Source: an uncultured Clostridia bacterium (lineage in GTDB: Bacteria > Bacillota > Clostridia > Oscillospirales > Ruminococcaceae). Taken from it: a stretch of 58,206 nucleotides of DNA. A model generated the notes under the pieces. It ran no database searches. It was not told where the DNA came from and saw only the letters and a program-made list of their open reading frames with translations. The position numbers and the translations under genes are program-made. Location of the stretch: NCBI GenBank assembly GCA_947588775.1, contig CANPZQ010000001.1:1-58206 (forward strand), written 5' to 3'. Numbering within the stretch: the stretch's first letter is position 1; each line of letters opens with the position of its first letter. Positions 5,645 to 58,060 of the stretch are shown one piece after another.

Positions 5645-5702
5645 ATTCGGCTTGGGCCGGGGGGTTGGGCGCGCGGAGTGTTCGGGTTTCCTGCGCAACC
5701 CC

Positions 5703-11170: not shown

Positions 11171-11210
11171 CGTGATTCCTCCATGCTGTTAAATTCCGCA
11201 AAACGCGCTT

Positions 11211-12260: not shown

Positions 12261-12371
12261 AATGTTCCTCCTGATGGGTTTTTATTGCAATCAGACCTCG
12301 CCCCGAAGCCGCGGCTTAGTCAGAGGTGTATGCGAAAATATATAAACGGCAAGTAATACCCTTCGGATATA

Positions 12372-13961
12372 TTACCGATTGTATTCGATTTTATCCTTTG
12401 TGACGACAAAGGAGTTGTTGTAAAAGCTCACCCAGAGCGTCGCGGGGGTATAGCTCCCCGATGCGGAATATTCGCCCGTCCATGCCGAGCAAAAGCTCCA
12501 TGCCGCTCCGTCGCGCGCCGCCAAAAGGGGCTGCGGGAGGGTCGAAGCCTCGCTAAGGGCAATCGGCTTGCTTTCGGAAATCTCCCGCGCGGCCGCCATA
12601 AGGCTTATGCCGCTGCCGAGGGATTCGCCCTCGTTAAGATATACGTCGAGGGAAATTATGTCGCACATTTCGTCGCCGACGTACCATTCGGGGCTCTGGC
12701 CGTTCCATATCCAAATCAGATTGTCGAGGCCGTGGTAGAGGGTCATCCTCTCAAAAATCAACTTGTATATCCAAAGATAGCTTTCCGCGCTCTTCGACCA
12801 CCAGAACTGACCGCCCGAGGCTTCGGGGAGGGGCCGGAAAAGAACCGGGATTCCCTCGTCCCTAAGACGCTTTAAAGCGTCGGCAGCTCTGTCGATTCCG
12901 TCAATCAGCGCGAGGGTTTCCGCCCCGATTGCGCCGTCGCCGTAGCGGAGCGCGAGGGCCTCGCCCTCCATAGTCGCGATGTCGAGGCTTGTTACCGCTT
13001 TTTCGGCGTCGAAGGCGGTTTTTTCGGCGTATACCGAGCCGTTTTGCGTCCAGTTCCAGACGTAGCCGACGATTCCGCCCGACTTCGCCCACTCGATTGC
13101 AAGCTCGACGTCGCCGCTGTCCGCGCCGGCCGAGTAGCCCATCAGCTCCCCGAACCGAATCGCGGGATATTTCCCCGTTAAATAATAAATTTCGTCAAGC
13201 TCGGCGTTTGTTCCCTGCGAGGCTTGCTGCCCGCTGAGAATTTTTTTGCCGTAATTGCTTAAAATATATTCGTAAAGCTCCCGTGCCTCCAAAGACGGCT
13301 CCTTTGTGCAGAGAGCCGCGTCCTCGGGGAGCGCGAAATCCGCATGCGGCTCGCCGTCCTCGATTAAAACGCAGTCGAGGTCGACCGGCGCAGTCATGTC
13401 CGAAAAGCCAAGCTCGCATGTCCCCGCCGGGAGAAAAACGTTTTCAAACCGAAGGCTCTCAAAGCCCTGCCCCGAAAGGGCAAAGCACCCGTATTCGAGG
13501 CCGCCGATGTAAAGCTTCCCCGAAGCGGGCTCGTCGGAGGCCGCCCGAAGGGTCAGCGAATAGTGCTGCGGCGACGGAACGTCAAGAACGAAGGATACGC
13601 CCGAATCGCCGTATGCGCCCGAAATGTACCCCGCGCCGGAATAACCCTCGCGGAGGTCGGCCGCCTGCCCGCCGGCGGCGGTATGCTCGAGCTCAATCAG
13701 AAGCTCAAAATCCTCGGAAACGCACTCGGGGAGCGAAATTTCCTGTTCGGAATATTTCGGCGGCTCGGGCGTCGGCGGAGGCGGAGGCGTTGTTTCGGGC
13801 GGAAGCGTTTCGGGAAGGCTCTGGGTAAAGAACGAAATCCCCTGCGTTTGGCCCGGCTGCGGCTCCGGTGCGGCCTGAGAGCAAGCCGCGAGGAGAATCG
13901 CCGCGCCGATCAGCATAGCGGTCAGTCTGTACATGATTTTCTCCGTTGTTGATTTATTCAA
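12372..13961 (-). CDS. lipoprotein with N-terminal CBM-like module and GH26-like (beta-mannanase family) catalytic domain
   Basis: lipobox LAAC; ILSGQQ, FRPLPEASGGQFWW (cf. GH26 RPxHExxGxWFWW), LDNLIWIWN, CDIISLDVY, PIALSEAS. Confidence 0.7.
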   Translation of the reverse strand: MNKSTTEKIMYRLTAMLIGAAILLAACSQAAPEPQPGQTQGISFFTQSLPETLPPETTPPPPPTPEPPKYSEQEISLPECVSEDFELLIELEHTAAGGQAADLREGYSGAGYISGAYGDSGVSFVLDVPSPQHYSLTLRAASDEPASGKLYIGGLEYGCFALSGQGFESLRFENVFLPAGTCELGFSDMTAPVDLDCVLIEDGEPHADFALPEDAALCTKEPSLEARELYEYILSNYGKKILSGQQASQGTNAELDEIYYLTGKYPAIRFGELMGYSAGADSGDVELAIEWAKSGGIVGYVWNWTQNGSVYAEKTAFDAEKAVTSLDIATMEGEALALRYGDGAIGAETLALIDGIDRAADALKRLRDEGIPVLFRPLPEASGGQFWWSKSAESYLWIYKLIFERMTLYHGLDNLIWIWNGQSPEWYVGDEMCDIISLDVYLNEGESLGSGISLMAAAREISESKPIALSEASTLPQPLLAARDGAAWSFCSAWTGEYSASGSYTPATLWVSFYNNSFVVTKDKIEYNR

Positions 13962-14302
13962 GGTGCGGAAAAGAAAAATTCAAAAGTTTTCGTCAACCTT
14001 TTTTCAAAAGGTTGCGGGGTCAAGGGGCGGAGCCCCTTGTCGCGGCCCGCAGGCCGCGAAATCTCTCATACTCCCCAAAGCGCAGGAGGGGGAGCCAAGA
14101 AATCAGTCCGGCGGACTGTTTTTGCGGGGGAACCCTCGCCTACGACAGCGGAACAAAACTCTTTGAGGACGAGCGGTCGGTCATTTATGACCGCGAAGTC
14201 CGAAAAGCAAGTTTTGTCGCCGGCGTTGGTTTCCACAACAAAGAAGGCTCTTTTACCCATGCTTGTTCGTTTTGCGAAGCCCGGGTTGAGGCACTTTGTC
14301 AG

Positions 14303-14389
14303 GGGGCGCGGGGACGGAGCGGGAACAAATCGCTAAGGTGGGAGGGCGGGCGGGTGGGGCCAACCCAACCAGCGCAGTCCCCGCGCCCC
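14303..14389 (+). repeat. hairpin/G-core repeat unit U4
   Basis: arms ggggcgcggggac / gtccccgcgcccc exact complements; interior gggagggcgggcgggtgggg. Confidence 0.8.
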
Positions 14390-14402
14390 CATTCGCGACG
14401 AA

Positions 14403-14445
14403 CCCGTCCCCCGAAGCCCAACGGGCTGAGCGGGGATGGGTGAGG
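14403..14445 (-). repeat. nested-hairpin module B, copy 2 (inverted relative to 5597-5644)
   Basis: reverse complement reads cctcacccatccccgctcagcccgttgggcttcgggggacggg. Confidence 0.8.
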
Positions 14446-14672
14446 AACGAATCCGGTAAGAGCCGCAGAGTTCAGAAGTCAGAAAACAGACGGAAAGAGC
14501 CCGAAAATACCCGAAATTCGGTACCCGCCCCGCCATCTCCCCTCATTCATCCCAAATCCCCCATTCCCCGATTTACTCTCAACAGCCCGCCGCCCGATTT
14601 TGCAGGCGGCAGGCCGTGAGCGTTGATTTTTTGCCGAATTCCGGCTCAAATACAAAACTTTCGGATTTCAGA

Positions 14673-15809
14673 TTACATACCTGTAAGTCCGGAACGCGCA
14701 AGACCCTCGGTGAAGTATTTCTGCAAGAATATGTACATCACGAGTATCGGCGCAATCGTCAGCAAGCACCCGGATTCGAGCCAGACTATCTTCTTTCTCG
14801 TGCCGACCTGAGCACCCGCGAACAGCTGCTGGTCGAGGTTGCCCGAAAGCTTCTGCAGCGCGAGCGAAACCGTGTTGTTGTTGAGGAAGAAGGTCGAGGA
14901 AATGTAGTAGTCGTTCCAGTACCAGACTATCGCGAAGAGGAATACGGTGAGGAAGGACGACGAAGCGTTCGGCACCATAATCCTGATGAACGTCTTGAGC
15001 GGACCGCAGCCGTCGAGATAGGCGGCGTCCTCAAGCTCAATCGGAAGTCCGCGGAAGAACTGGCGGAAGATGAAGATGAACAGTCCCGATTTGATGCCGT
15101 TCGCAAAGAGCGCGGGCCAGTACATTACTATCGGGTTGTCAATCAGGGAGGCGTACAGAGCCCCGGTCGGGGTGCCGTTCGCGTCGGTAATCGCCTTGAT
15201 GTTCGCTCCGAGGAAGGTCGTCATTCCGAGCTTGGAGCAGAGCTTTACAATTCCGGCTCCCTGGAAGAACGCCCACTGGAGATAGAGCGGGATAACCGTA
15301 ATCTGCGGCGGAACGATAATCTGCATGATTACCACCGCGAAGCAGATGCCCTTGCCCTTGAAGTTGAATCTCGCAAGGCCGTAGCCGGTGAGGGCGCAGG
15401 TTATAACCGAGAACAGCGAGCAGACGAGGTTGATTTTCAGCGTGTTGATTAACGCCTCGTCGAATTTCATGATTCCCCATACGTCCGCCATGTTTGAAAT
15501 CGTAAGGCTCTTCGGAATCCAGATAATCGACGGGTCGGTCATCTGGACGTTCGGCCTGAAGGCCGTCGAGAACATGTAGATGAGCGGATAGAGTATGACG
15601 AAGCAGAGCCCGAAGAGAATCAGGAACCTGAAGAAGGGCCAAACCTTCGAGAGAATCGCCTTTCTTCTCAAATAGGCGGTGTGCTCGGGGGATATTATGC
15701 GCTCGTCGAGGGTTCCCGCCTTTTTCGCGGCCTTATAGGCCTTGGCGCGCTCCTTTAAAGCCTTCTGGCGTTCGCGTTCAAATTGCTTTTCTTCTTTTGC
15801 AGTTGCCAT
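14673..15809 (-). CDS. carbohydrate ABC transporter permease (MalG-type) with Lys-rich N-terminal tail
   Basis: 6 TM, type I importer permease layout; GGGAGGGA RBS; 14-nt gap to the upstream permease gene. Confidence 0.8.
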   Translation of the reverse strand: MATAKEEKQFERERQKALKERAKAYKAAKKAGTLDERIISPEHTAYLRRKAILSKVWPFFRFLILFGLCFVILYPLIYMFSTAFRPNVQMTDPSIIWIPKSLTISNMADVWGIMKFDEALINTLKINLVCSLFSVITCALTGYGLARFNFKGKGICFAVVIMQIIVPPQITVIPLYLQWAFFQGAGIVKLCSKLGMTTFLGANIKAITDANGTPTGALYASLIDNPIVMYWPALFANGIKSGLFIFIFRQFFRGLPIELEDAAYLDGCGPLKTFIRIMVPNASSSFLTVFLFAIVWYWNDYYISSTFFLNNNTVSLALQKLSGNLDQQLFAGAQVGTRKKIVWLESGCLLTIAPILVMYIFLQKYFTEGLARSGLTGM

Positions 15810-15823
15810 TCAATATCCCTCCC

Positions 15824-16816
15824 TTACACTTCGTAGTAAACGAATTTGTTGAGTATCGGCAAGACGATTGCGAGCGCGGCGATTACTATGATGAAGTAGG
15901 ACCACGCCATGGCTGCCGAATAGCCGTGCTCCCAGCCCGACGCCTTCTGTAAAACGAGCGTCATAACTCCGTTGGCGGGGTCGATGAAGGAGTCAACGAT
16001 GGTGTAGATGAGGTTGGTGACTATCATCGGGGAGATGTAGGGAATCGTAATCTTCCAGAAGAACTCCCACGCCGTTGCTCCCTCAATCGAGGCGGCCTCC
16101 TTTGCGGAATAGGGGATATTCTGCAGGGCCGAGAGGAAGATTATAATCTGGATACCGGAATCCCATACGAGGTTGAATACGTTCGACGTAATCGTCGAGA
16201 GCATGTCTGTTACCTTGTCGCTGATGTTGTAAACGCCGAGGAAGTTCATAAGTGCTCCCGTCATATCCGTTTCAAACATCGTCGAGAATTGCTCCGCGCC
16301 TCCCGAGTAGCCCGAGGTGTCCATATCGCCGTTTATAATCGAGATAACCGGACCGGTGGCGATTATAACCGGGAGGAAGAATACCGCGCGGGCGAAGGTT
16401 CTGCCCTTGAACTTCTGGTTTAAGATTACCGCGATGAAGATTGAGAATACGATAATCAGCGGGGTCTGCCAGAGGGTGTCCCTTAGAACCGCAAGAAGGG
16501 CTTCGGTATACTCGGTGTCCTCTCTGAACGCGCGAATGTAGTTGTTGATGCCGACAAACTTTGTTCCCATATAGCCGAGGTTTACCTGGGTTTCGTTTAA
16601 CGAATACCAGAGGGAAACGGCGAGCGGCCTCAGGAAGAAGTAAATCGTACCGATAATCCAGATGGCAAGGAAGCCGTAGGCGTAAAGTGCCTTGCGCTTT
16701 TCATAGGCAATCCTCAGACCCTTGGGCTGCTTTTGTTTTGGAGCCTTCGGCGTCTTGGGAGCCTTTTCGGGCTTTACCTTTACCTCCTTGACGGCGGTGT
16801 TAGTTGAATCTGCCAT
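15824..16816 (-). CDS. sugar ABC transporter permease (MalF-type) with Lys/Pro-rich N-terminal tail
   Basis: multi-TM permease; start ATG overlaps the upstream stop (TAATG). Confidence 0.8.
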   Translation of the reverse strand: MADSTNTAVKEVKVKPEKAPKTPKAPKQKQPKGLRIAYEKRKALYAYGFLAIWIIGTIYFFLRPLAVSLWYSLNETQVNLGYMGTKFVGINNYIRAFREDTEYTEALLAVLRDTLWQTPLIIVFSIFIAVILNQKFKGRTFARAVFFLPVIIATGPVISIINGDMDTSGYSGGAEQFSTMFETDMTGALMNFLGVYNISDKVTDMLSTITSNVFNLVWDSGIQIIIFLSALQNIPYSAKEAASIEGATAWEFFWKITIPYISPMIVTNLIYTIVDSFIDPANGVMTLVLQKASGWEHGYSAAMAWSYFIIVIAALAIVLPILNKFVYYEV

Positions 16817-19371
16817 TAGTCCGAACCTCCTTTAACGTAATCTGTGTAGTTATAGGTCTTGCCGCCGGCCTTTATGTCGCCCGTCGAGAGGTCGACAACG
16901 GTCTGATAGCCGTTGGAGTAGTCGGTGGTAAGAACGCTGCCGTCTACCTTGTAATCGGAGATTGTCGCGCCCTTTGCGGGGGTCAGGACTTCGTTTACAA
17001 GCTGATAGGCCTTCGACGCCTCTTCAACCCAGCCCTCGTAGCAGCAGTAGAACTTATCCACATAGTCGGTGTTGACAAGCTCGCTTGCCTCCTCGTGCAT
17101 GAACTCGAAGTTGAGGTTCGAGCCCGCGGCGATTGCCTTAAGGACCGCCGCCGTGGTATCGGGAGTGCCGTTAATCGGCTCGGAGGCGTAGTCGACATAT
17201 CCGTGAATAACCATCTGATAGAACGGGATGTCGTAGTCCGAGAGCTTGAACTGGCTCGACTGGAGGGTGAGGTTGTTGATTCTCGAAACGTATGGGATGA
17301 TGTAGGCGTTCGGAGCGTCCGCAATAACCTTTCCGTTCGATTCCTTGGCGGCCTTATAGTAGTCGATGAGGTATTCGGCGGTAGTGCAGCGGTTGGTGCG
17401 GTACTTGTTCGAGAAGTCGCTCCAAAGGGTGTTGGAAACGATTCCGAGGCCTGCGCCCTGGTCGTATTTTCCGAGGTTCTTTGTTACCTTCTTAGAGAGC
17501 TTCTCAATCGAACGCGGGCTCATCAGCGCGGCGGCAACGCCGGAATCGGGGGTGCCGTAGGCGATGTTGTAGGTATACTGTCTTGAATAGGACTTAGATA
17601 CGCGGTAAGCGGTATTGAAGAGCGTCCAGAAGCCGTTGCCGTTGGACTTGAAGGTGTTGCCCGAAACTGTTGCGTAGTAGTCTACGCCCATCTCTGCAAA
17701 TTCCTTAAGCATCTTCTTATACTGGCTCTTTCCGCCGAGGCAGGACGCCGGGCTGTCGCCGGTATCGATCTTCGAGGACATCGAATCCTCGGTCCAGTCG
17801 TGATAGTTTACGACAAGGTTTCCGACTCCCTCGTCCTTGAGGGCGGAGATGATTTCGGTCGCCTGCTTGAAGGTGGTGTAGGCGGTCTTTAACTTAATCG
17901 GGAAGCCGAGAATCGACTTCGATTTAAGGGTTCCGCCGTCGAGGTCGACGTAAAGAGCGGGCTCAGTCGCGTCGGCGGTTTTTTCAAGGCCCTTTTCCTC
18001 GATGAGATAGTTGCGGTAGATTTCGGCTATCTCGGCAGGGGTAACGGTTTCGTTATCGCTGGTGTAGGGGATATATCTTACTCCGACGCGCGGAACAAGA
18101 ATCTGGCCGTTGCCCTTTTCAAATACCATGATGGCGGAGGAGTCGCCGGTCATGTAGTAGTTATCCGTAGAACGGAGCGTAAACGAGAAGTAGCAGTCGT
18201 TATACCACGAGTTCTCGTTTTTGGAGTAGGAAACGTTCGCGTTTACGTTCGCGAAGGTGTCGCCGTCGGTCGCAATCATGACGAGGGCCTTGTTGCCCTT
18301 TACCATCGCCATGACGGGCAGATAAGCCTGCTCAACCATATCCGGCTCGACTTCCTTTACCGTAGTGATGTCGCGGCCGTAGAGGGGCTGGCTGTAGTCG
18401 GAGTAGTTGCCTCTGCCGTTATTGAGATTGATAATCGCGCCGGAGCCGTCGGGAATAAGCATATATCCCTCGTCCTCGGTTGTTGCGGCGTCCATGTAGG
18501 GGAACATCGCGAGCTCGGTGAGGACGATCGTATCTCTGTCCTCGGCGTCCTGGTCGTTTTTGACCTCTTCGCGGTAGCCGTTGTTCTCCTTGATTTCGGA
18601 GGTTTCGACGTAGCAGTAGAAGCTGTCGTCCTCAAGGACAATATGAACCGGGATATTCGCCGAAGCGGTTCTTACGCCGTAGCGAATGATGATTTCGTTG
18701 TCCTTGACCTCATATTTCATGTTTCCGCGGCTCGTCGATTCCCTGTAGGAGAACAGGAACGCCGACGAGGCGATAAGGTCGGTAGCGTTGCCGTACTTAT
18801 AGGCGATATTGGAGAGGCGGTTCTGCTTCAGGCTGTTCTTGTTGGTCGAGGTATCGGCGAGGGCGTTAATCGGGTTGGTCCAGATTATATTCCCGTCGGC
18901 CTTTTCGACGAACGCTATACGCTCAAGCTCGGCGTCCTCAACTCCGAAGTCGGCGTAAACCTCGAACTTGTCGTTTTCAAGGATTTTTTCGCAGTTCGCG
19001 AGGGCTTCCTCGTCGGTAATCATCTCGACGGGAGCTTCCTCTTCCTCCTCGCCTTCGCCCGACTCGGAATCCTCGCCCTCGGCGGGCGCGGGGTCGGTGT
19101 CGTCGGGAGTTTCAACCGCTTCGGGCTCTTCGTCCTCGGCGGGGGCCTCTTCTGCGGGAGCTTCCTCTTCGGGAGCCTCCTCGGCGGGGGCTTCCACGGC
19201 GGGTTCGTCGGTCGGGGCTACAAGCTCCTCGCCCTCGGGTGCGACCGCTTCATCGGCAAGCTCGGTTTCGTCGGCCTCGCCGCCCTCGGCAACGAGCGCG
19301 ACCGCGCTTGTTGTAATCAGGATTGCCGCTGACAGCAGGCAAGCCAGTAATCTTAGAAATGTGTTTTTCAT
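16816..19371 (-). CDS. large secreted or anchored protein of unknown function (851 aa); from memory resembles DUF5696-type proteins, unverified
   Basis: N-terminal signal/anchor, ~90-aa acidic AEEAPEEE linker, then ~700-aa globular region; embedded between transporter genes. Confidence 0.5.
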   Translation of the reverse strand: MKNTFLRLLACLLSAAILITTSAVALVAEGGEADETELADEAVAPEGEELVAPTDEPAVEAPAEEAPEEEAPAEEAPAEDEEPEAVETPDDTDPAPAEGEDSESGEGEEEEEAPVEMITDEEALANCEKILENDKFEVYADFGVEDAELERIAFVEKADGNIIWTNPINALADTSTNKNSLKQNRLSNIAYKYGNATDLIASSAFLFSYRESTSRGNMKYEVKDNEIIIRYGVRTASANIPVHIVLEDDSFYCYVETSEIKENNGYREEVKNDQDAEDRDTIVLTELAMFPYMDAATTEDEGYMLIPDGSGAIINLNNGRGNYSDYSQPLYGRDITTVKEVEPDMVEQAYLPVMAMVKGNKALVMIATDGDTFANVNANVSYSKNENSWYNDCYFSFTLRSTDNYYMTGDSSAIMVFEKGNGQILVPRVGVRYIPYTSDNETVTPAEIAEIYRNYLIEEKGLEKTADATEPALYVDLDGGTLKSKSILGFPIKLKTAYTTFKQATEIISALKDEGVGNLVVNYHDWTEDSMSSKIDTGDSPASCLGGKSQYKKMLKEFAEMGVDYYATVSGNTFKSNGNGFWTLFNTAYRVSKSYSRQYTYNIAYGTPDSGVAAALMSPRSIEKLSKKVTKNLGKYDQGAGLGIVSNTLWSDFSNKYRTNRCTTAEYLIDYYKAAKESNGKVIADAPNAYIIPYVSRINNLTLQSSQFKLSDYDIPFYQMVIHGYVDYASEPINGTPDTTAAVLKAIAAGSNLNFEFMHEEASELVNTDYVDKFYCCYEGWVEEASKAYQLVNEVLTPAKGATISDYKVDGSVLTTDYSNGYQTVVDLSTGDIKAGGKTYNYTDYVKGGSD

Positions 19372-19393
19372 AATTTACTCACTTTCTGCTTTC

Positions 19394-20029
19394 TCAGCTT
19401 CTGAATCTGTAGAGAATTTCGGTGTAGATTGTTGCGAAGAATACGTATACCTGCTGGAAGAGCGACATTATAAGCGCGAGCAGGCAGAGAATCAGGACCA
19501 TGCCGGCGACGGTTGAAATCATACTTACAAACGTCATCGTGAAGCTGTACTGGTGGCACGCCTTCATCGCGAATACCATCAGGATTACCGACCACCAGAG
19601 GCCGATCATGCTTATGGCGTTGTACCAAATCGACTCGTCGAGGGTGAGGAAGTAAGAGAGCGCGGTCGAGAGGGTATTGCCGATGATGAACGGAACCAGA
19701 GAGTAGGCGGTGTAAATCGCAACTCTGCGCATATTTCCCTCGCCGTCGAACAGGGTGCAGATACTCCAGTTTGAAACCACCCATGTGCCGTAGTAGGCGA
19801 CGGACTGAACGAGAATCGGCATGATGTTGAATACGTCGGAATAGGCCCTTGTGTTATAGGCGAAGCCGCCGTAGCGTGTGGAAAATACCTGAGAGGCAAA
19901 GAGCAGGAACACTATAAAGAAGGAAATTTTAAGCGAGCCGGCTTTTTTCCATCTCATATCCTCAAACCCCTCGGTGGGGTGGAAGATGACGTGCGTAACC
20001 CATTGCCAAGGCTTCATGTCATAAATCAT
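19394..20029 (-). CDS. Yip1-like polytopic membrane protein
   Basis: N-terminal HPTEGFEDMRWKKAGSL followed by ~5 TM; ATGA overlap with the upstream gene. Confidence 0.6.
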   Translation of the reverse strand: MIYDMKPWQWVTHVIFHPTEGFEDMRWKKAGSLKISFFIVFLLFASQVFSTRYGGFAYNTRAYSDVFNIMPILVQSVAYYGTWVVSNWSICTLFDGEGNMRRVAIYTAYSLVPFIIGNTLSTALSYFLTLDESIWYNAISMIGLWWSVILMVFAMKACHQYSFTMTFVSMISTVAGMVLILCLLALIMSLFQQVYVFFATIYTEILYRFRS

Positions 20030-21696
20030 TTACCCTTGCCCCCTTTCTTGATTTTGTCAACGACGCTGACTGCCGCGTTCTTGCAGGCGTCAACAACCTT
20101 TCCGCAGGCGGTCGCAATCAGCTTCTTCGGGATTTTGCCCTTCTTCTGGAGGTACTTAACGACGAAGTAAAGGATTACGAGCAGGAAGATGATTATAACG
20201 TAGAGCGTGAAGTTGTCGCGCAGCGTTTCCTGGCGCGAGGCCTCGAACGCCTTGTCGTATTCGTCGGCGTAGAAGCTCAGCTTCGAGTATTTCATCGCTC
20301 CCTCGTAGTCGTCCTGATTGTAGAGGGCCTTCGCGGTTCCGACGAGAGCCATATAGTAGCCGCCGTCGCGCTTCAGAACCTCCTGCCAGAGGTCGTAGGC
20401 TTCCTCATAGAAGCCGCGGTTGTGAAGCTGAATCGCGTCGTGAACGTACTGTCCGAATTCGGTGAGGCCGAAGGTCGTTATGTCGTTGTTTCTGCCGTCG
20501 AGAACATATACGTTGTTGCCGTAGGTTTCGAGGGCGTTGGGGTTGTTGAATCCGCCGCGCTGCTCCTCCTGGTCGAAGCCGAAGATAAGAAGCAGGTTGC
20601 AGCGTTCGTCATACTGGAATACGCGGCCGGTGGTGTAGTCGAGGATATTGATGAAGCCGTCGTCCGAAACCGCGATGTCGGTAAGTCTTGTGGCATAGGT
20701 GGTGCCGTTGTAGGTAGCGGAAACCTGGTCGCCGAACTCGTTGTTGTCGGCGGTTCTCTCTAAGATGTTGTAGCCCGCCGGGTTCATCTTCTTAACCGCG
20801 TCGGTGGAGGCGTTCGCAACCTCGGTGACGGTGTAGATGAAGCCTTCCTTGTCGATGTCGAAGTTCGCGTACTCGACAGGGGTGGACTTTGTAAGAGATG
20901 CAATCTGCTGCTCGGAGGCAATCTTTCTCCAGAGCTTGTTGCGGATAACCTCGGCCGTTACCTCAACTCTGTTCGCGCCGTAGTATCCGACGAAGGAGCC
21001 CGAGTCGGAGAACATTATAGCTCCCTTGTTTACGGCGGGGCAGATAACGTAGACGTTCTTCGCCGCGTCGACGACTACCTTTGTGCAGTAGAAGGAAACG
21101 GACTCATAGAGCGGGGTTTCGGGGCGGTAATACTCGTTAAGTATTCTCGCGGAGGTCTTTGTTTCCTCGACGCACTTTACGACGCGCTGGTTATCGCGGT
21201 CGGCTATGTAGATTACGTCGTCCTCGTCGACGAATACCCCGTAGGGGGACTTGAGCTCGTCGGCGTCGACCTCGATTTCGTTGCCGCTTTCATCGACGAC
21301 GGTGTGCTTTGAGGTGCTTCCCGGGAAATACTTATAGCAGGCGAGAAGGTTAAAGTCGAGGTCGGTCTTTACGATTCTGTTGTTGCCGGTGTCGGCAATA
21401 TAGAACTCTTTGTTGGGCGAAAGGAAGAAGTCCTTAGAGTCGCTCAGAGTCGAGGGCTCGTTTTCGCTGATGTAGAACTCGCTGGTGGGGTCGCTTAGCT
21501 GCCAAAGGCCGATGTCGTCGCCGTTGACGGTATTTATGACCTCATAGCCCGCCTGCGAGGGCAGGGCGTTGTCCCATGCGTCATAGCTGTATGTCGTATA
21601 CGGGTCGACCGCGAGGGCGGGAACAATCATTACGCTGACCGCCATAAGCGCGACGAGCAGTACACTCAAAATTTTTCTGAATTTCATACTATTCAC
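20026..21696 (-). CDS. signal-peptide NHL-repeat beta-propeller / TPR-like protein with C-terminal TM anchor and basic tail
   Basis: repeated FYIADTGNNRIVK / IYIADRDNQRVVK / VYVLDGRNNDITTF motifs; C-terminal TM LYVIIIFLLVILYFVV; GTG 21696 is 8 nt after AAGGTGA (alternatives 21687, 21714). Confidence 0.65.
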   Translation of the reverse strand: MNSMKFRKILSVLLVALMAVSVMIVPALAVDPYTTYSYDAWDNALPSQAGYEVINTVNGDDIGLWQLSDPTSEFYISENEPSTLSDSKDFFLSPNKEFYIADTGNNRIVKTDLDFNLLACYKYFPGSTSKHTVVDESGNEIEVDADELKSPYGVFVDEDDVIYIADRDNQRVVKCVEETKTSARILNEYYRPETPLYESVSFYCTKVVVDAAKNVYVICPAVNKGAIMFSDSGSFVGYYGANRVEVTAEVIRNKLWRKIASEQQIASLTKSTPVEYANFDIDKEGFIYTVTEVANASTDAVKKMNPAGYNILERTADNNEFGDQVSATYNGTTYATRLTDIAVSDDGFINILDYTTGRVFQYDERCNLLLIFGFDQEEQRGGFNNPNALETYGNNVYVLDGRNNDITTFGLTEFGQYVHDAIQLHNRGFYEEAYDLWQEVLKRDGGYYMALVGTAKALYNQDDYEGAMKYSKLSFYADEYDKAFEASRQETLRDNFTLYVIIIFLLVILYFVVKYLQKKGKIPKKLIATACGKVVDACKNAAVSVVDKIKKGGKGK

Positions 21697-21735
21697 CGCT
21701 TTATCACCTTTCATTTTATTTTTAATTACTCTGAA

Positions 21736-22710
21736 TCAATCCTTCATACCGGAGTTGGCCATGGTTTCCATAACGTTACTCTGGGCGATGAGGAAGATGA
21801 CAAGCGGAGGAATCATCAGGACGACAGCCGAGGCGTAGATGATGCCCTGACGCGCGATACCCGAGGCGGCTATCTGCGTCATAATGGTCGGCAGCGTCTT
21901 GAGGTCTTCACGGTATACCAGCGCGCCGCCCTGGATATTCCACGCGCCCTGGAATACGAATATGATAAGGGTCGCGATGGCGGGCTTCTGGTTGGGGATT
22001 ACGACCTGCCAGCAGGTGCGGAAGGCACCCGCGCCGTCGACCTTCGCGGCGTCGATAACCGCGTCGTTGATGGTCGACATATTCTGACGCATCAGGTAAA
22101 GGCCCATCGAGGTGGCGACGTTCGGCAGAATCATCGCCCAGTATGTGTTGATCATACCCATCTTGGCCATTACGACAAACTGCATAATCCATGTGGCGGT
22201 CGAGGTGAAGAGCATCGAGGTTACAATCAGCTGGTTCGCGAATTTATAGCCCGGAATCTTGGGGCATTTAGCCAAAACATACGCGCAGCAACATACCACG
22301 AAAACGTGCATTACGGTGATTACGATAGTGATGAATACCGAGTTGAACACGTAGCGGGAGAACGGCACCCAAAGGTTGCCGGCAACCTTGAAGAGGTTCG
22401 AGAAGTTCTCGCCGGTAGGCTGTAAAACATAGAGCTTAGGCGGGAATACGAACAGCTCGCTTATCGGCTTGAAGGACTGTACGATTGAGTAATAGAGTGG
22501 GAATATCATGAATAATCCCAGAAGGCAGAGAAGAACGAATATGCAGATGTCACCGCCCAAGGAGCCGTTTATATGCTTGCCTTTGGACTTTTTGACCTTT
22601 GCCTTTTCGATGTCGCCTCTTTTTTTCTGACGTTTTCTGAGTTTTTTCAGTGCCTTTTCGTTTGCGGATTCAAGCGAATCCATAATCGGTGTCTGTACGG
22701 CGTCTGCCAT
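21736..22710 (-). CDS. carbohydrate ABC transporter permease (MalG-type) with Lys-rich N-terminal tail
   Basis: 6 TM permease; AAAGGAGGGG RBS. Confidence 0.8.
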   Translation of the reverse strand: MADAVQTPIMDSLESANEKALKKLRKRQKKRGDIEKAKVKKSKGKHINGSLGGDICIFVLLCLLGLFMIFPLYYSIVQSFKPISELFVFPPKLYVLQPTGENFSNLFKVAGNLWVPFSRYVFNSVFITIVITVMHVFVVCCCAYVLAKCPKIPGYKFANQLIVTSMLFTSTATWIMQFVVMAKMGMINTYWAMILPNVATSMGLYLMRQNMSTINDAVIDAAKVDGAGAFRTCWQVVIPNQKPAIATLIIFVFQGAWNIQGGALVYREDLKTLPTIMTQIAASGIARQGIIYASAVVLMIPPLVIFLIAQSNVMETMANSGMKD

Positions 22711-22725
22711 TTATGTTCCCCTCCT

Positions 22726-23679
22726 TTAATCTGTATATTTGCTGAGCACGCTTCTGATGACGTGGTTGCATATAAGCATTACCGCGAACAAAACGAAGCA
22801 TATTGCCGAGGCGTAGCCCATTTCGTAACGGATAGAGCCGTAGTCCTGAGCGTGGTTCATAATCGTATGAACCGCGTAAGCGGTCGAGGGCAGGCCGCAG
22901 AGCGACGCTCCTACCGAGCCAACGGTAAAGGCTCCCGAAATCGCGAGAACGGCTGCGAACAGAAGCGACGGTCCCATCGCGGGGATTGTGATGGTGAAGA
23001 GCTCCTGGAAGCGGTTCTGGATTCCTTCGATGGCTCCCGCCTCATAGAGGGCGGTATCTATACCCTGGAAGCCGGCGCGAAGGGCTAAGAAGCCCGCGCC
23101 CATCGACATCCAGAGCTGGACGATAATTACGACGGTCATCATGTATGTGACGTCGGTGAGCCACTGTTTCGCGGAATTGATAATTCCGAAGTCCATAAGA
23201 ACCGAGTTTAAGTATCCGTAGGAGTCGCCCGAGAATACGAGCTGCCAGATTACGAACGCCGAGGGCGTCATGGACGGGGCGTAGAACACGAATGTGAAGA
23301 AAACCTTCAAAAACGGGTTCATTTCGTTAATCAACCACGCGAGCAAAAAGCTCAGCACATATGAGAACGGGCCGGTGAACACCGCGAAAATAAGGGTGTT
23401 CTTAATTGCGAGGAGGAAGATGTCGTCGTTTACGAACAGCGAGTAGAAGTTCTGTAAACCTATGAACCGCGGGAACTGAACGAGGTTGAAGCTCGTAAGT
23501 CCCAGAGGCAGCGACATTACAACCGGGATAATCGTGAAGATTGCGAACAGCGCGAAGAACGGGAGCATCATCCAGTAGCACGCCTGATTCATCTTCATGA
23601 GGTGCAGGGTATACGCCGATTTGCTTTCGGTGTTGAGAGGCTTTACCTTTTTGACTTCCTCTTTTTCTTTTTTAGCCAT
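22726..23679 (-). CDS. sugar ABC transporter permease (MalF-type) with Lys-rich N-terminal tail
   Basis: 6 TM permease; AAGGAGGGAGG RBS. Confidence 0.8.
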   Translation of the reverse strand: MAKKEKEEVKKVKPLNTESKSAYTLHLMKMNQACYWMMLPFFALFAIFTIIPVVMSLPLGLTSFNLVQFPRFIGLQNFYSLFVNDDIFLLAIKNTLIFAVFTGPFSYVLSFLLAWLINEMNPFLKVFFTFVFYAPSMTPSAFVIWQLVFSGDSYGYLNSVLMDFGIINSAKQWLTDVTYMMTVVIIVQLWMSMGAGFLALRAGFQGIDTALYEAGAIEGIQNRFQELFTITIPAMGPSLLFAAVLAISGAFTVGSVGASLCGLPSTAYAVHTIMNHAQDYGSIRYEMGYASAICFVLFAVMLICNHVIRSVLSKYTD

Positions 23680-23695
23680 TTAAATTCCTCCCTCC

Positions 23696-26620
23696 TTAAT
23701 CCTTGGGAACTTCGATGCCGAGTTCCTCATATTTACGGATAATCTCGTCGTTGATGTCCCTGTTGTACCAGACGAGCGTATCGCGCGGGTTTGTTGCCTG
23801 GTTTACCGTTTCACGGAAGGCGTTTGTGATGTTACGGGTTACGATGTAGGTTGCGGGAATGATGTCTATATCGACGGTGTTGTCCATCTGAGCCCTAATC
23901 TTATCGAGCTCGGTCTGGTTCCACGCAAGCTGTCCCAGAGCCTCGCGGTTAGCGGTTTCAAATCTGCCCATCGGGCCGAGGAGGGCTTCAATCGAGCGTC
24001 CGTACTCGGACTGTACCTCGGCGGAGGTGAACCACTTGATGAGCTCCCAAGCGTCGGAACGCTGTTTTTCGTTGAGCTTCGAGAAGATAATCGCGCCGGC
24101 GGAGGAAGAAGTGGTCGAGCGGTTTATAGTGCCGTCGGCTGCCGCGGTGCCGGGGATAGCGTCGAACTGCCAGAGTCCGCGGATTTCGGGGGCGGCCATA
24201 TAGAGCTGGTTGTAGAAGGTGTAGCCGGTGATGACAATCGGATATTCACCGGTTCTGAAACGTGTGAACTGGTCGAAGGTCTGCTCGAAGGAGTAGGTCG
24301 AGTAGAACTTGCACCACATCTCGAACGCTTCAACGGCGTCCTGCTGCTCGAAGATGGTCTTGGTCTTGCTTTCGTTGTAGTAACCGAGGCCGCGCTGTAC
24401 CATGAACGTACCGTAGACGTCGAAGTTGAAGCCTACGCCCATGTAGCTTCTCTGAAGAGTAGGAAGCATGTCTATGAGCTCAAGCCATGTGTCGGGGCCT
24501 TTGTCGAAGCCGAAGCCCGCCAGAACGTCGTTGCGGCAGAACATCATCGAGAAGGTCTGGGAAATCGGGAGCCCGTAAACGCCGTCTTGGTAGGTGTAGA
24601 GCGTCATTACGTTGGGCGCGAATCTCTTTGTCACTTCTTCGTAGTCGGGGAACTGCGAAACGTCGACGAGGCAGTCGCGCGCCGCCAGCTGAATCGGGAG
24701 GTCGCCGCCGACGAAGAGAACTACGTCCGGTCCCTTACCCGCGAGGGTGGATTCAAGAATACCGCCCTGAACGAGGTTGATGTTTACCGGGATTCCGGTG
24801 TCCTCGACGAAGTAGGAGTCGACAAGCTCTTTTACTATCTGCGCCTGGTCGCGTCCGAGGGATACCCAGACGTTGAGGGCGGCCTTGTTGTCCTCGGAAA
24901 GGACGTTATAGTCCTCGAAGAAGGAGCCTAAGAAGGAGCGGAAGCTGAAGGAAAGCTGCTTGAAGAAGTTTTCCTTAATCGGACTGAACTGCTTTTCGGC
25001 GGAGGCGATTTCGATTATATCGACCTCGAGAGCCTGAGAGCGGTAGTCCGCCATCCACTGGGAGAGCGAGGAGATGTTATCCTTAATCTGTCCGAGGCAC
25101 CCCGGAATGTCGTCCGGCTTCTTTACAAGCCTGTCGAGGAGCTTAGCCATCGTTTCCAGAGAAACCGCCTCGGTGCCGGAGGTTCCGGCGAGGGTTTCGA
25201 TTTCGGACTTGATGGTTCTGAGCTGCTGCGCGTAGGTCGCGAAGTCGTCGAGAATTCCGTCAATCTGATTCTGAATCATGTAGGTGTTGTATTCGTCGGG
25301 CGACGGGCCGGTAATCTGGAGAATCTGGCGATAGTAGCTGTTGAGGTAGTAGACAACGTCGTCAAGCTGCCGCATTATTCCGCCGATTTCGCCCGGCATC
25401 GCTTCGAGGCGAATGGTGTGTTCGCCCGCGTCGAGGTAGAAGTAGAGGGTGTTGCCGTCGGCGTCGGACGGGGTGACGCAGTCCCATGTCGTAGAATAGT
25501 AGAACTTAATCTGCTCCGCTTCCTCGCAGGGGACCTTGTCGTCTATGTAGAGCGTTCTGTTCGAGTAAAGTCCGCGCATCTGGTCCTGCTTCGCGCGGAT
25601 GCCGATTTTGTAGTATCCCGCCGTCGGAACCTCGAACGTCCAGCCGATATACTGGCCGGAGGTTTTCCAGTTCTCCTTGCCGATGGTGTTGTAAATCATC
25701 TTAGTCGGGTCGGAGGGGGAGGTAAGATAGGTGGAACGGTCGTACGTCGGATAGAGAGTAATATCGGACGCGATTGTCGGGTTCTCGCCCTCGATTGTGA
25801 TTAAGACGTCCTTGGTCGCGCCGGCCTTGGAAGCGTCGGTGGTGACGTTATCCTGCATTGCTGCGGGAAGCGGCACGTCCTCCTGAGTGAGGGTGATTTT
25901 GGAGATAGCGAATCTCGCCTTGTCCGAGATAAGGGTAACGGTGTGCTCGCCCTGCTCGAAATAGAATCCGAGCGCGCCGCTGAACAGGCCGTCCGAGTCC
26001 TTTAAGAAGGCCGTCTGCCAGCCCGTCGATTCCTCAAGGGTCGGGCGAATCTGGTTCCCGTGAACGTCGGTGCGGAAGCTTCTGTTTCCCGCGTCGTCGT
26101 AGACGAAGGATTTCTCCGCGCTTACCCAAATTTTCGGAAGCGAAATCTGCTCCGCGGTGTCGAACGGCGACTCGCCGTCGATTCTGAACGCGAATTCAAT
26201 GCTGTTCGCGGCACTCGCCAGCGCGTAGTAGTCCATCTTAACCGCATAAACGCCGGTTGCCGGGACGTTTATGTCAAAAGAAACCTCGCCGCTCGCGCCT
26301 TCCCAGACTAAAGCTTCAACGCCGTCGAGGGTATCGACGCGCGCTTCGGCCTCTTCCGACGCGTCGATGAAGTCGGCTCCGTTTACGGTGACTTCCTGAT
26401 TCGGACGCGGGTCGCCTGCGTGCTTGTCATAGTAAGTGCTGTAAGTGCGGGCTCTGTTTTCGTCGTCGAGCGACTGGGCGGACGTTTCCTTCGCCTCAAC
26501 CGGGGCTGCGGCGTCGGCGTCCGCGGCGTTGCCGTCGGCGTATACATAAGCCAATGTCGGCACTGTCATCACTAAAGCCAGTACAAGCGAGGTCAGACGC
26601 CTGAACATTTTGTCTTTCAC
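23696..26620 (-). CDS. giant extracellular solute-binding protein: signal peptide, two CBM-like beta-sandwich modules, helical linker, family-1 SBP domain
   Basis: two related modules ending GEHTVTLIS / GEHTIRLEA; C-terminal ~400 aa reads like a sugar SBP (NVWVSLG.., YGLPISQTFSMMF..); GTG 26620 after AAAGGTGGA (alternatives 26608, 26638). Confidence 0.7.
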   Translation of the reverse strand: MKDKMFRRLTSLVLALVMTVPTLAYVYADGNAADADAAAPVEAKETSAQSLDDENRARTYSTYYDKHAGDPRPNQEVTVNGADFIDASEEAEARVDTLDGVEALVWEGASGEVSFDINVPATGVYAVKMDYYALASAANSIEFAFRIDGESPFDTAEQISLPKIWVSAEKSFVYDDAGNRSFRTDVHGNQIRPTLEESTGWQTAFLKDSDGLFSGALGFYFEQGEHTVTLISDKARFAISKITLTQEDVPLPAAMQDNVTTDASKAGATKDVLITIEGENPTIASDITLYPTYDRSTYLTSPSDPTKMIYNTIGKENWKTSGQYIGWTFEVPTAGYYKIGIRAKQDQMRGLYSNRTLYIDDKVPCEEAEQIKFYYSTTWDCVTPSDADGNTLYFYLDAGEHTIRLEAMPGEIGGIMRQLDDVVYYLNSYYRQILQITGPSPDEYNTYMIQNQIDGILDDFATYAQQLRTIKSEIETLAGTSGTEAVSLETMAKLLDRLVKKPDDIPGCLGQIKDNISSLSQWMADYRSQALEVDIIEIASAEKQFSPIKENFFKQLSFSFRSFLGSFFEDYNVLSEDNKAALNVWVSLGRDQAQIVKELVDSYFVEDTGIPVNINLVQGGILESTLAGKGPDVVLFVGGDLPIQLAARDCLVDVSQFPDYEEVTKRFAPNVMTLYTYQDGVYGLPISQTFSMMFCRNDVLAGFGFDKGPDTWLELIDMLPTLQRSYMGVGFNFDVYGTFMVQRGLGYYNESKTKTIFEQQDAVEAFEMWCKFYSTYSFEQTFDQFTRFRTGEYPIVITGYTFYNQLYMAAPEIRGLWQFDAIPGTAAADGTINRSTTSSSAGAIIFSKLNEKQRSDAWELIKWFTSAEVQSEYGRSIEALLGPMGRFETANREALGQLAWNQTELDKIRAQMDNTVDIDIIPATYIVTRNITNAFRETVNQATNPRDTLVWYNRDINDEIIRKYEELGIEVPKD

Positions 26621-26683
26621 TTTAAATCCACCTTTCATCTTGTTTTGAATGATTTATATTCTCCGTTTGGGTTATAAAGAAGT

Positions 26684-27601
26684 TTATTGAGCCTTGTGGA
26701 TATAGATGCGCTCGTTTTCAAGGTCCAAATCCGCCTTGACCTTCGATCCGCCCTTGATTTCAAGGGCTTCGAGGTAATCCTTCGGAATCTGGAGCCGCCC
26801 GGTTCTGTCGAGAACAACGAGCTCCTCCGAAACCTCCTCGGGAGCGGCCTCGCCGGCGTCCCCGGTGTCCCAGCCCTTCGATTCGTTCATAATCTCGGCG
26901 TGGGATTTTTTGATTATCTCGCTCGAGGTCCGGCCGTCGCGAATCGCAACGACGCGGTCGATTTGCTTTGCAAGCCTAAGGTCGTGGGTTACGATTACGA
27001 CCGTTACGCCTCTCGTGCGGTTTATATCCTTAAACACCCCAAGAAGCTGGTCGGAGGTCTTTGTATCGACCGAGCCCGTGGGTTCGTCCGCAAGCAGAAT
27101 CGCGGGGTTATTCGCGAGCGAAATCGCTATCGCGACTCTCTGCTGCTCGCCGCCCGACATCTGGTCGAGGCGGGAATTTATCCTGTTTGAAAGCCCGACG
27201 GCTTCTAAAAGCTCAAGAGCCCTTTCTCTGCGCTGTTTCTGCCCCTGAAGGAGCATCGGCAGCTCGACGTTCTGTACGGCGGTGAGATACGGCACCAAAT
27301 TTCGCGCGTTGTTCTGCCAGACGAAGCCGACGGTGTTGCGCTTATATACCATATAGTCCTCTTCGGTGAATTTAAGAAGATTCCTGCCGTTTACGGTAAG
27401 GCTTCCCGCCGATGGCTTATCGAGGCCGCCGAGCATATTCAGAAGCGTGGATTTGCCGCTTCCCGAGGTGCCGACAATCGCGACAAGCTCGCCTTTTTTG
27501 ACCTGTAAATCGAGCCCCTGGAGCGCGACGACCTCTATTTGGTCAGTCTTGTAGATTTTAACAAGGTTCTCGCACTCGATTGCGTACTCGCTTTCGGCCA
27601 T
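26684..27601 (-). CDS. MacB/LolD-type ABC ATPase with ~80-aa C-terminal extension (AbrB/SpoVT-like by eye)
   Basis: GTSGSGKSTLLNMLGGLD, MSGGEQQRVAIA, ILLADEPTGSVD; tail ..VLDRTGRLQIPKDYLEALEIKGGSKVKADLDLENERIYI; start ATG 27601 uncertain (short RBS spacing). Confidence 0.75.
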   Translation of the reverse strand: MAESEYAIECENLVKIYKTDQIEVVALQGLDLQVKKGELVAIVGTSGSGKSTLLNMLGGLDKPSAGSLTVNGRNLLKFTEEDYMVYKRNTVGFVWQNNARNLVPYLTAVQNVELPMLLQGQKQRRERALELLEAVGLSNRINSRLDQMSGGEQQRVAIAISLANNPAILLADEPTGSVDTKTSDQLLGVFKDINRTRGVTVVIVTHDLRLAKQIDRVVAIRDGRTSSEIIKKSHAEIMNESKGWDTGDAGEAAPEEVSEELVVLDRTGRLQIPKDYLEALEIKGGSKVKADLDLENERIYIHKAQ

Positions 27602-27638
27602 CAGCTCCTGCTCATGCTCGAGCTTTTTCTTTTTCTTT

Positions 27639-28316
27639 TTAGTCAACAATCTCACCGTCCTCAAGCGTATAAACCCTGTCCGCGATTTCAAGAAGGCTGA
27701 CGTCGTGGGTCGTCATTACAATCGTCATGTGCTCGTCTAAGACAAGCGTCTTAAACAGCTCCACGATGTGGTGGCTGGTGCCGGAATCAAGCTCCGCGGT
27801 CGGCTCGTCGGCGAAAATTATTTTCGGCTCATGCGCAAGAGCCCGCGCAATCGCAACTCTTTGCTGTTCGCCGCCCGAGAGCTCGCCGGGGCGGTGATGC
27901 ATTCTCTTCGCGAGGCCGACCTCTTCGAGGCACTTTGTCACCCGTTCCTGACGCTTTTCAAGCGGGAAGCCCGCAAGCCGAAGGCCGAAGTCGACGTTTT
28001 CGTAAGCCGTCATCGAGCTCATCAGCGCGACGCTCTGGAAAACGAACGCCATCTGGTAGCGGCGGAGCTCATCACGCTTTAAATCGCTGAGTTTAGTAAT
28101 GTCCTGCCCGTCGAAGATAACCTCGCCGCTTGTGGGGCGGTCGAGCGCGCCGAGCATGTTAATCAGCGTAGTTTTTCCGGAACCGGAGCGGCCCTTTAAT
28201 ATTGTAAGCTTGCCCTCGGCGACCTGAATATTTACGCCCTTGAGCGCGTGGACGACGGAGCCGTCGCCGATGACAAAATCGCGCGTGACGTTAGTTGCTG
28301 TCAAAAGTTCTGCCAT
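27639..28316 (-). CDS. MacB/LolD-type ABC ATPase (225 aa)
   Basis: GRSGSGKTTLINMLGALD, LSGGEQQRVAIA, IIFADEPTAELD; ATG 28316 follows GGAGG. Confidence 0.85.
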   Translation of the reverse strand: MAELLTATNVTRDFVIGDGSVVHALKGVNIQVAEGKLTILKGRSGSGKTTLINMLGALDRPTSGEVIFDGQDITKLSDLKRDELRRYQMAFVFQSVALMSSMTAYENVDFGLRLAGFPLEKRQERVTKCLEEVGLAKRMHHRPGELSGGEQQRVAIARALAHEPKIIFADEPTAELDSGTSHHIVELFKTLVLDEHMTIVMTTHDVSLLEIADRVYTLEDGEIVD

Positions 28317-28480
28317 TGTTCCTCCATAATCGCTTCGGGCGTTTTTGTGCATAATGCACAATCCGGCCCTGTAACAGTCCAAAACGACTTTAAGCAAATA
28401 CAGCTTTCACAAAAGGAGTGAACCCGTATTTGCTTTCTAACTAAAAATTTTTGATTGCGAATCGCTTTTCTTGTGCTATT

Positions 28481-28509
28481 ATTATAGCAAAGTGTAAAGC
28501 CGGTGTCAA
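28481..28509 (-). promoter_or_regulatory. sigma-A type promoter for the ATPase genes
   Basis: minus strand TTGACA (28509-28504), 17 nt, TATAAT (28486-28481). Confidence 0.6.
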
Positions 28510-28611
28510 GAGAAATCACGCAATTTCCACAAAAAAAATTTTGCCCGCAACAGGTAGCGAGCTGCGGCGCGGGGATTGTCTATATATAGTGTCCCGGGGC
28601 GGAGCGGGGGC

Positions 28612-28648
28612 AAAAAAATCGCCCCCGCCTGTCTGCATCAGGCGGGGG
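28612..28648 (-). terminator. intrinsic terminator of the 654-aa surface protein gene
   Basis: cccccgcctg / caggcggggg stem (28622-28648); T-run on the minus strand (A-run 28612-28618 on plus). Confidence 0.75.
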
Positions 28649-28691
28649 TATTTACCGTCATCTGACGGTTATCCTCATTTTTTCGGAGGAA

Positions 28692-30656: not shown

Positions 30657-30747
30657 AGTAGTTTTTCCTCCTTAAAAAATTTGGATAGGTTTTAATCCCT
30701 ATAAAGGATATAGGAATCTGTTTTGTCCGGGGTACCAGACGATAGAA

Positions 30748-58048: not shown

Positions 58049-58060
58049 TTGACGAGGAAT

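Follow-up and report, generated by a model that had tools for sequence, protein, structure and literature searches.

We analyzed a 58,206-nucleotide stretch of genomic DNA from an uncultured Clostridia bacterium of the Ruminococcaceae (assembly GCA_947588775.1, contig CANPZQ010000001.1, positions 1 to 58,206; hereafter the window) and focused on a minus-strand cluster of eight genes at 14673-26638. This cassette encodes a giant substrate-binding protein (SBP), a pair of MalF/MalG-type permeases (F1 and G1), an NHL/TPR protein, a Yip1-family protein, a DUF5696 protein and a second permease pair (F2 and G2). The cluster is real, and its arrangement is far beyond what chance would give. On balance, the evidence favors a system for the capture of glycans at the cell surface, their trimming and their import through two permease pairs, built from two anciently joined modules and located in this lineage inside a MacB-type operon. 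Ruminococcus and other Oscillospiraceae are major fiber degraders in guts and rumens, and glycan capture and import are far less understood in Oscillospiraceae than in Bacteroidota. The cassette opens to testing a probable new glycoside hydrolase (GH) family, the first functional context for a bacterial Yip1 protein outside YknW, with a partner named by gene fusion, and the layout of an ATP-binding cassette (ABC) importer that combines two permease pairs with a giant SBP lacking an anchor.

Organization and conservation of the cassette

All eight genes were identified as open reading frames (ORFs) on the minus strand. The giant SBP gene (23696-26638, 980 aa from the first ATG) is followed by the genes for F1 (22726-23679, 317 aa; UgpA, E=5e-13) and G1 (21736-22710, 324 aa; UgpE, E=4e-24), and then by those for the single-pass NHL/TPR protein (20026-21714, 562 aa; NHL, E=2.9e-12, plus TPR), the Yip1 protein (19394-20029, 211 aa; PF04893, E=3.7e-16) and the DUF5696 protein (16816-19371, 851 aa; E=1.2e-139). 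The last two genes encode F2 (15824-16816, 330 aa; MalF/UgpA type), whose start overlaps the DUF5696 stop codon, and G2 (14673-15809, 378 aa; MalG/UgpE type), in which the N-terminal tail is long and basic and a loop is inserted. From the SBP gene to G2 the intergenic distances are 16, 15, 21, -4 (ATGA), 22, -1 (TAATG) and 14 nt, and no convincing terminator was found within the cassette. The original prediction, made from the sequence alone, had described eight genes no more than 22 nt apart with two start/stop overlaps and had named their protein families. Both descriptions were confirmed, the second by Pfam and NCBIfam searches with each cassette protein. It had also bounded the unit at 26620, and this had to be revised: the SBP gene runs to 26638 and the operon begins upstream, with two ATPase genes (26684-28316).

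The four permeases matched UgpA/UgpE/MalF/MalG-type models with E-values from 5e-13 to 4e-24, and the canonical EAA coupling loops were conserved in all of them. Pfam BPD_transp_1 scores were weak, with no Pfam match for F1 and scores at or below the threshold for G1 and F2. Identity between F1 and F2 and between G1 and G2 was only 22-23%, which indicates that the duplication is ancient and that the cluster is not a recent fusion of two ordinary sugar-transporter loci, an origin that would have undermined the original prediction. A recent duplication of one permease pair is ruled out by the same values. With two permease pairs and one SBP, the window departs from the ratio of one pair per SBP that characterizes type I binding-protein-dependent importers. 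The Lys-rich cytoplasmic tails pointed out earlier are also real (8-12 Lys each) and are K/R-rich in the orthologs (K+R fraction 0.24-0.33); nothing beyond an extended positive-inside pattern was seen in them.

To assess conservation, one genome per species was scanned. At least 587 DUF5696 loci were found, and the best 79 were analyzed. All 79 were named Oscillospiraceae, Ruminococcus or uncultured Clostridia, including R. albus AR67 and R. callidus ATCC 27760, and the order SBP-F1-G1-NHL-Yip1-DUF5696-F2-G2 was identical in every sufficiently long locus. A distant set of 80 metagenome loci, in which DUF5696 was only 28% identical, was scanned with hidden Markov models (HMMs) built from the Oscillospiraceae orthologs, and the same cassette recurred there. 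Altogether, the cassette order is kept in over 150 loci from guts and the environment, and the majority of these are named as Clostridia. Wherever the contig continues, the DUF5696 gene adjoins F2-G2, with a median spacing to F2 of -1 nt. The recurrent neighborhood of Yip1, DUF5696 and permease genes named in the original prediction is therefore real and very deeply conserved, and the gene-neighborhood check found the NHL/TPR, Yip1 and DUF5696 genes kept together with the permeases in relatives.

The distant loci also revealed the modular anatomy of the cassette. Module A consists of the giant SBP, F1 and G1, and module B of NHL/TPR plus Yip1, DUF5696, F2 and G2. Module B, usually accompanied by a second SBP, was found either without the giant SBP-F1-G1 genes or with these genes downstream. 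Since module B can stand alone or ahead of module A, the locus represents two modules rather than two permease pairs with three genes inserted between them, as had originally been proposed. The second SBP belongs to family 1, is of ordinary size (∼446 aa) and is often a lipoprotein. It was present in 53 of the 80 distant loci, either directly after G2 or directly before the giant SBP, whereas the window and almost all Oscillospiraceae loci lack it. Among the distant loci, some have four tandem copies of the small binding-protein gene after G2, and in one a second NHL gene opens a second copy of the cassette (L144, 14629-20500; L121, 14028-15299). An apparent variant architecture (L080) was set aside as probably a frameshifted assembly.

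The NHL/TPR and Yip1 proteins appear to be particularly closely linked. The former has an extracellular NHL beta-propeller, which resembles the PknD sensor propeller (1rwi, 5e-18), together with TPR, a C-terminal transmembrane (TM) helix and a basic tail. The Yip1 protein is multi-pass (three strong segments in a crude hydropathy scan, five in fused relatives), and its gene is translationally coupled to the NHL gene via the ATGA overlap. In the Oscillospiraceae loci the spacing between the two genes has a median of 1 nt and a maximum of 14, and the length of Yip1 is constant (209-211 aa in 78 loci). Among the 80 distant loci, Yip1 is a separate gene in 38 and is fused to the C-terminus of NHL/TPR in 33, giving a protein of ∼730 aa in which the Yip1 HMM matches across the whole model (E<=1e-38). 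Yip1 is thus present in all 71 distant loci that reach far enough upstream, the other nine ending at a contig edge; its apparent absence from some loci is explained by fusion to the NHL gene. The fusion indicates that both proteins act as one unit, and NHL/TPR-Yip1 is an uncharacterized, fusion-linked subunit. Yip1 was retained in 114 loci with neither LolD-type ATPases nor FtsX nearby.

The transporter parts all fall into known superfamilies, and hence the cassette is not a new category of system. Together with the finding that the two modules can occur separately or in another order, this would suit the view that a pair of ordinary sugar ABC loci simply lies beside three genes unrelated to them, with no functional integration. 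Such a juxtaposition is, however, highly improbable in light of strict synteny over ∼150 loci, down to 28% identity, of the NHL/TPR-Yip1 fusion in many loci, of overlapping start and stop codons and of the constant position of DUF5696 beside F2-G2.

The DUF5696 protein and the giant binding protein

The window's DUF5696 protein is not on record by exact look-up; the family comprises 5,196 clusters at 50% identity (E<=1e-3). A model was built with AlphaFold2 (AF2) from a 36-sequence alignment (pLDDT 76.5, pTM 0.79). Its N-terminal part consists of a signal/anchor helix and a disordered acidic linker of ∼100 aa, and its core of a (beta/alpha)8 barrel placed between a beta-sandwich and a C-terminal beta domain. 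Foldseek comparison of this model with PDB placed first the GH129 3,6-anhydro-D-galactosidase 5opq (E=1.2e-25, TM-score 0.68), followed by the GH129 alpha-N-acetylgalactosaminidase 5wzn (E=3e-21) and several GH101 entries (E ∼1e-15), and ranked GH36, GH31 and GH97 after GH129/GH101. The likeness to GH129/GH101 (5opq, 5wzn, 2zxq and 5a55; E=1e-25 to 1e-15) concerns the predicted overall fold, whereas sequence identity to these proteins is 9-14%. In Pfam, DUF5696 itself was the sole match even at E=10, with neither GH101 nor GH129 appearing, a single-sequence search of PDB found nothing, and the PDB profile-search matches were spurious (PPR-repeat and low-complexity only).

Five residues, D308, D334, D712, R661 and Y452, were 94-100% conserved in 111 sequences from both subfamilies, and D308 sits in the motif GYxxxPDGSG. 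D652, in an LWSDF motif, was considered as a catalytic candidate and was rejected, being invariant in close relatives but not across the family. Judging from the model, the DUF5696 protein is probably a glycosidase of an undescribed family and a candidate for a new GH family.

In the giant SBP, a family-1 sugar-binding domain spans aa ∼560-880 (SBP_bac_8 at aa 625-879, 2.6e-19), and its profile matches Lin1841 at 2e-19. The protein begins with a signal peptide without a lipobox, followed by two weak CBM35/Golvesin-like beta regions and a long helical region. For the N-terminal ∼550 residues, the CBM35/Golvesin-like matches were the only ones in Pfam at E=10, and a single-sequence AF2 model of the first 541 aa was unusable (pLDDT 41.5) except for the beta-beta-helical order of its secondary structure, which is suggestive. 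Throughout the Oscillospiraceae loci the SBP is 950-1020 aa long. The lipobox was missing in 61 of 70 close and in 32 of 34 distant SBP orthologs. The NHL/TPR-Yip1 unit may be considered a candidate tether for this unanchored SBP.

The operon start and the MFP-FtsX genes

It should be noted that the cassette does not stand alone in its operon. A sigma-70 promoter (TTGACA-17-TATAAT with an extended -10 TG; 28481-28509, minus strand) matches the consensus at 12/12 positions and is the sole such match in 11000-30900. It lies upstream of ATP_A, a LolD/MacB-type ATPase gene (27639-28316, minus strand, 225 aa from ATG 28316; ABC_tran 4e-35; LolD TIGR02211 207.7 bits). The operon therefore starts at ATP_A, and the ATPases are co-transcribed with the cassette. 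An intrinsic terminator at 28622-28648 on the same strand (a 10-bp stem with nine GC pairs, then a T run) closes an upstream surface-protein gene and forms the upstream operon boundary. The second LolD/MacB-type ATPase gene, ATP_B (26684-27601, minus strand), encodes 305 aa if translation begins at ATG 27601; other starts in the same frame, as far as 27655, would add a Lys-rich tail. ATP_B has a C-terminal extension of ∼70 aa (26684-26920) with a weak AbrB/MazE (SpoVT-AbrB) swapped-hairpin signature (MazE_antitoxin, E=0.0012; PF04014 precomputed in one homolog), and such an extension is unusual on a LolD-type ATPase.

Downstream of the cassette, on the same strand, are the genes for a membrane fusion protein (MFP; 11211-12260), an HlyD/YknX-like adaptor with HlyD_3 and HlyD_D23 matches and weak YknX_C matches in orthologs, and for a fused double FtsX-type permease (8351-11170, 939 aa; PF02687, 5.5e-21). 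A TM scan of the latter gave 10 TM segments and two extracellular loops of ∼250 aa each. Genes for an OmpR-type response regulator and a histidine kinase lie downstream of FtsX.

It had been proposed that the operon lacks an importer-type ATPase. Indeed, no MalK/MsmX-type ATPase is present in the 58-kb window; on the other hand, two LolD-type ATPases head the same operon, so this part of the proposal holds only for the MalK/MsmX type. In Firmicutes it is common for sugar ABC operons to lack a MalK-type ATPase gene, a single ATPase such as MsmX being shared among them. The best NCBIfam models for ATP_A and ATP_B were LolD, MacB, DevA and FtsE (183-228 bits, all below the equivalog cut-offs), and at the PDB level the importer ATPases OppD and DppD matched equally well. 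In 29 loci ATP_A and ATP_B immediately precede the SBP gene, and 18 of these loci lack MFP, FtsX and GH26 genes nearby. No such ATPase was found beside the cassette in 34 related loci that extend at least 1.9 kb beyond the SBP on its upstream side, or in any of the 80 distant loci. The idea that the ATPases are hidden further upstream in group 3 loci was rejected within the visible range. FtsX orthologs with 51-58% identity are encoded by other Ruminococcus genomes in units of two genes together with an MFP, and no ATPase was found within 10 kb or a 6-kb flank of these (five look-ups, about four distinct arrangements). One orphan MFP-FtsX lineage adjoins a GH130 gene. Near the orphan MFP-FtsX genes on a related Ruminococcus contig is a Thoeris-like defense pair of ThsA (Macro) and ThsB (TIR) (L086, 20881-22267).

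These data bear on the partner of the two ATPases. Most likely, ATP_A and ATP_B belong with the MFP and FtsX proteins, as a two-ATPase partner for the asymmetric fused permease, and the most economical reading of the window's clade is that the cassette and the GH26 gene are nested between the two halves of an MFP-FtsX operon. Alternatively, the ten genes from ATP_A to G2 could form a self-contained hybrid importer in which a LolD-like heterodimer directly powers one or both MalF/MalG-type pairs, a combination of nucleotide-binding and transmembrane domains that, if true, has not been described before. This alternative deserves consideration, since the ATPases are co-transcribed with and adjacent to the SBP gene in the 29 loci, the 18 loci without FtsX or MFP are flanked by housekeeping genes on the other strand, and OppD and DppD are among the best PDB matches of ATP_B, with an E-value equal to that of LolD; in addition, ATP_B has a C-terminal extra domain, as many importer ATPases do. 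However, the ATPase profiles group with LolD, MacB, FtsE and DevA, and MalK, UgpC and MsmX were not in the top 25. The 114 loci without an adjacent ATPase, the EAA loops of all four permeases, which are essentially identical in lineages with and without local ATPases, and the orthologous MFP-FtsX pairs without an ATPase of their own, which need one in trans, also argue against it, and we regard the hybrid importer as unlikely. Still, the fact that the ATPases are persistently co-transcribed with the cassette hints at functional coupling.

Yip1 proteins have themselves been connected with MacB-type systems: YknW is a Yip1-family protein that modulates the assembly of YknXYZ (PMC4887032). All four types of parts of YknWXYZ/MacAB are found in the window, namely a Yip1 protein, an MFP with weak YknX-like matches, LolD-type ATPases and FtsX. 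In contrast to those systems, the genes in the window are split by the 12-kb cassette, the two ATPases are different and the 10-TM FtsX is fused. Moreover, the conserved partner of Yip1 in the cassette is the NHL/TPR protein, as indicated by the fusion.

Proposed function, substrate and neighboring genes

We suggest that module B is the universal core of a surface system in which the DUF5696 protein, membrane-proximal on its long acidic linker, would trim glycan outside the cell and F2G2 would import the products. The ectodomain formed by the NHL propeller and TPR, anchored by Yip1, might serve as a scaffold or a glycan-binding subunit. Module A would provide a second importer, with the carbohydrate-binding-like extra domains of its SBP serving capture. 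The four permeases would most likely be powered by a shared MsmX/MalK-type ATPase encoded elsewhere, whereas the co-transcribed LolD-type ATPases would most likely drive the downstream machine of MFP and 10-TM FtsX, which may cooperate with the cassette.

The neighboring genes provide some information on the substrate. A GH26 (mannanase-family) lipoprotein gene (12372-13934, minus strand; PF02156, 1.8e-41; lipobox LLAAC) lies downstream of G2, so that both a degrading enzyme and the GH-fold DUF5696 protein adjoin ABC parts in one locus, as expected of a Gram-positive polysaccharide utilization locus, which would also include a dedicated regulator. GH26 genes were found in 19 loci (the window, 12 related and six distant loci); in the Oscillospiraceae set they are almost confined to the window's clade, and they recur in distant relatives. 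GH130 genes occurred in 15 loci (four related and 11 distant) and GH95 genes just downstream of G2 in 16, and apiosidase-like enzymes were also among the plant-glycan genes of distant loci. LacI or AraC regulators were present in 19 loci, some of them distant, and many loci show no regulator. On the basis of these neighbors, the substrate is probably a plant hemicellulose such as beta-mannan, although the call is a weak one. The GH26 lipoprotein is present just downstream and has a lipobox, as expected from the original prediction, yet it is an accessory neighbor whose adjacency is not universal. The broader guess of a surface-coupled machine for glycan capture, processing and import has gained from the glycosidase fold of DUF5696, the sugar-type SBP and the recurrent GH26, GH130 and GH95 genes, and has lost its assumptions of a missing ATPase and of inserted genes.

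The same observations help to evaluate a different function, the remodeling or recycling of an envelope glycopolymer, in which the MacB-type machine would mechanically control the DUF5696 hydrolase from the cell interior, much as FtsEX acts on wall hydrolases, and the SBP and permeases would recover the sugars. The linkage of the cassette to LolD-type ATPases and, in the window's clade, to MFP-FtsX would fit this idea, as would its broad and uniform conservation in Oscillospiraceae among housekeeping neighbors (RNase Y, ThrRS, AdhE and ArgRS) and the many loci with no regulator beside the operon. Extracytoplasmic mechanical work is known for MacB-type transporters (PMC5985334). We nevertheless consider it quite improbable: the link to FtsX and the ATPases is absent from the 34 related and 80 distant loci, these loci carry LacI/AraC regulators, GH26, GH130, GH95 and apiosidase-like enzymes, as is typical of nutrient loci, and the SBP domain resembles oligosaccharide-binding proteins. 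A further scenario would combine the cassette and the MacB-type system into one Gram-positive surface machine, in which the NHL/TPR-Yip1 scaffold would hold the glycosidase and the non-lipidated SBP over the two importers, and a mechanotransmitting FtsX/MFP complex, driven by ATP_A/ATP_B, would act on the glycan or the enzyme outside the cell. If true, Firmicutes would have an equivalent of the Bacteroidota utilisome in which capture is energized; at present this scenario appears rather unlikely.

Several points weigh against surface glycan capture, trimming and dual import as proposed here. At the sequence level the DUF5696 protein matches neither a GH family nor a PDB entry, and the giant SBP has no lipid anchor to retain it at the surface. 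The 18 loci that have the ATPases but no FtsX in reach would be explained most simply if the ATPases serve the MalF/MalG-type pairs, and these loci are flanked by housekeeping genes, not by carbohydrate-active enzymes. The neighboring glycosidases vary from locus to locus, which is why the assignment of the substrate is weak. Finally, full-text literature searches returned no biochemical or expression data for any cassette component.

Comparison with known systems places the cassette closest to familiar importers without making it equivalent to any of them. Like the CUT1-family importers of Firmicutes (MalEFG type), it has a family-1 SBP, MalF/MalG-type permeases with EAA loops and no cognate MalK-type gene in the locus. 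It differs from them by two anciently diverged permease pairs (22-23% identity) with scores at or below the Pfam threshold, by an SBP of 980 aa with no lipobox and ∼550 extra N-terminal residues, and by three obligatory extra genes (NHL/TPR, Yip1 and DUF5696). The beta-mannan loci of Roseburia intestinalis (PMC6385246) and Faecalibacterium prausnitzii (PMC8262883) likewise have an ABC importer and an SBP beside GH26 and/or GH130, whereas GH26 and GH130 are variable neighbors of the cassette and not core genes. A 2026 paper on beta-mannan does not mention the cassette genes, and full-text searches found no paper naming DUF5696/PF18952 or combining a Yip1 domain, a glycoside hydrolase and a permease. 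By analogy, the Sus-like utilisomes of Bacteroidota also bring surface binding, trimming and import together in one conserved cassette, but their proteins, origin and membrane architecture are different, the present system being Gram-positive and based on ABC rather than TonB-dependent transport.

Some additional features of the window were also recorded. Between G2 and GH26 is a GC-rich non-coding spacer of 738 nt (13935-14672, minus strand), which is ∼100 nt long in close relatives (L001 and L004). It contains one copy (14290-14460) of a GC-rich repeat that is dispersed among intergenic regions and has the core CCCACCCGCCCGCCCACCC...CCCCGCTCC.TCCCCGCGC; further copies lie at 5597-5649, 5849-5877, 44966-45024, 48487-48540 and 48753-48802. 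Upstream of the operon, 28692-30656 (minus strand) encodes a secreted protein of 654 aa that matched neither Pfam nor NCBIfam. The gene has a separate 11/12 promoter at 30776-30748. At the end of the protein, an NPKTG motif, a hydrophobic segment and a KKH tail resemble a sortase signal, and weak relatives occupy the same upstream position in the closest relatives of the window; in group 3 loci a different family of ∼540-610 aa, also without a Pfam match, lies upstream of the cassette. A 732-aa ORF without a Pfam match (41814-44012, minus strand), directly downstream of an extracytoplasmic function (ECF)-type sigma factor gene (44048-44608, minus strand), could encode an anti-sigma or envelope protein. 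On the plus strand, a glycosyltransferase family 2 (GT2) gene followed by a gene for a 950-aa YfhO-family membrane protein (51632-55392) likely forms an envelope-glycosylation module. The sole Rfam match above the gathering score in the window was a thiamine pyrophosphate (TPP) riboswitch at 57948-58055 on the minus strand (RF00059, 68.6 bits).

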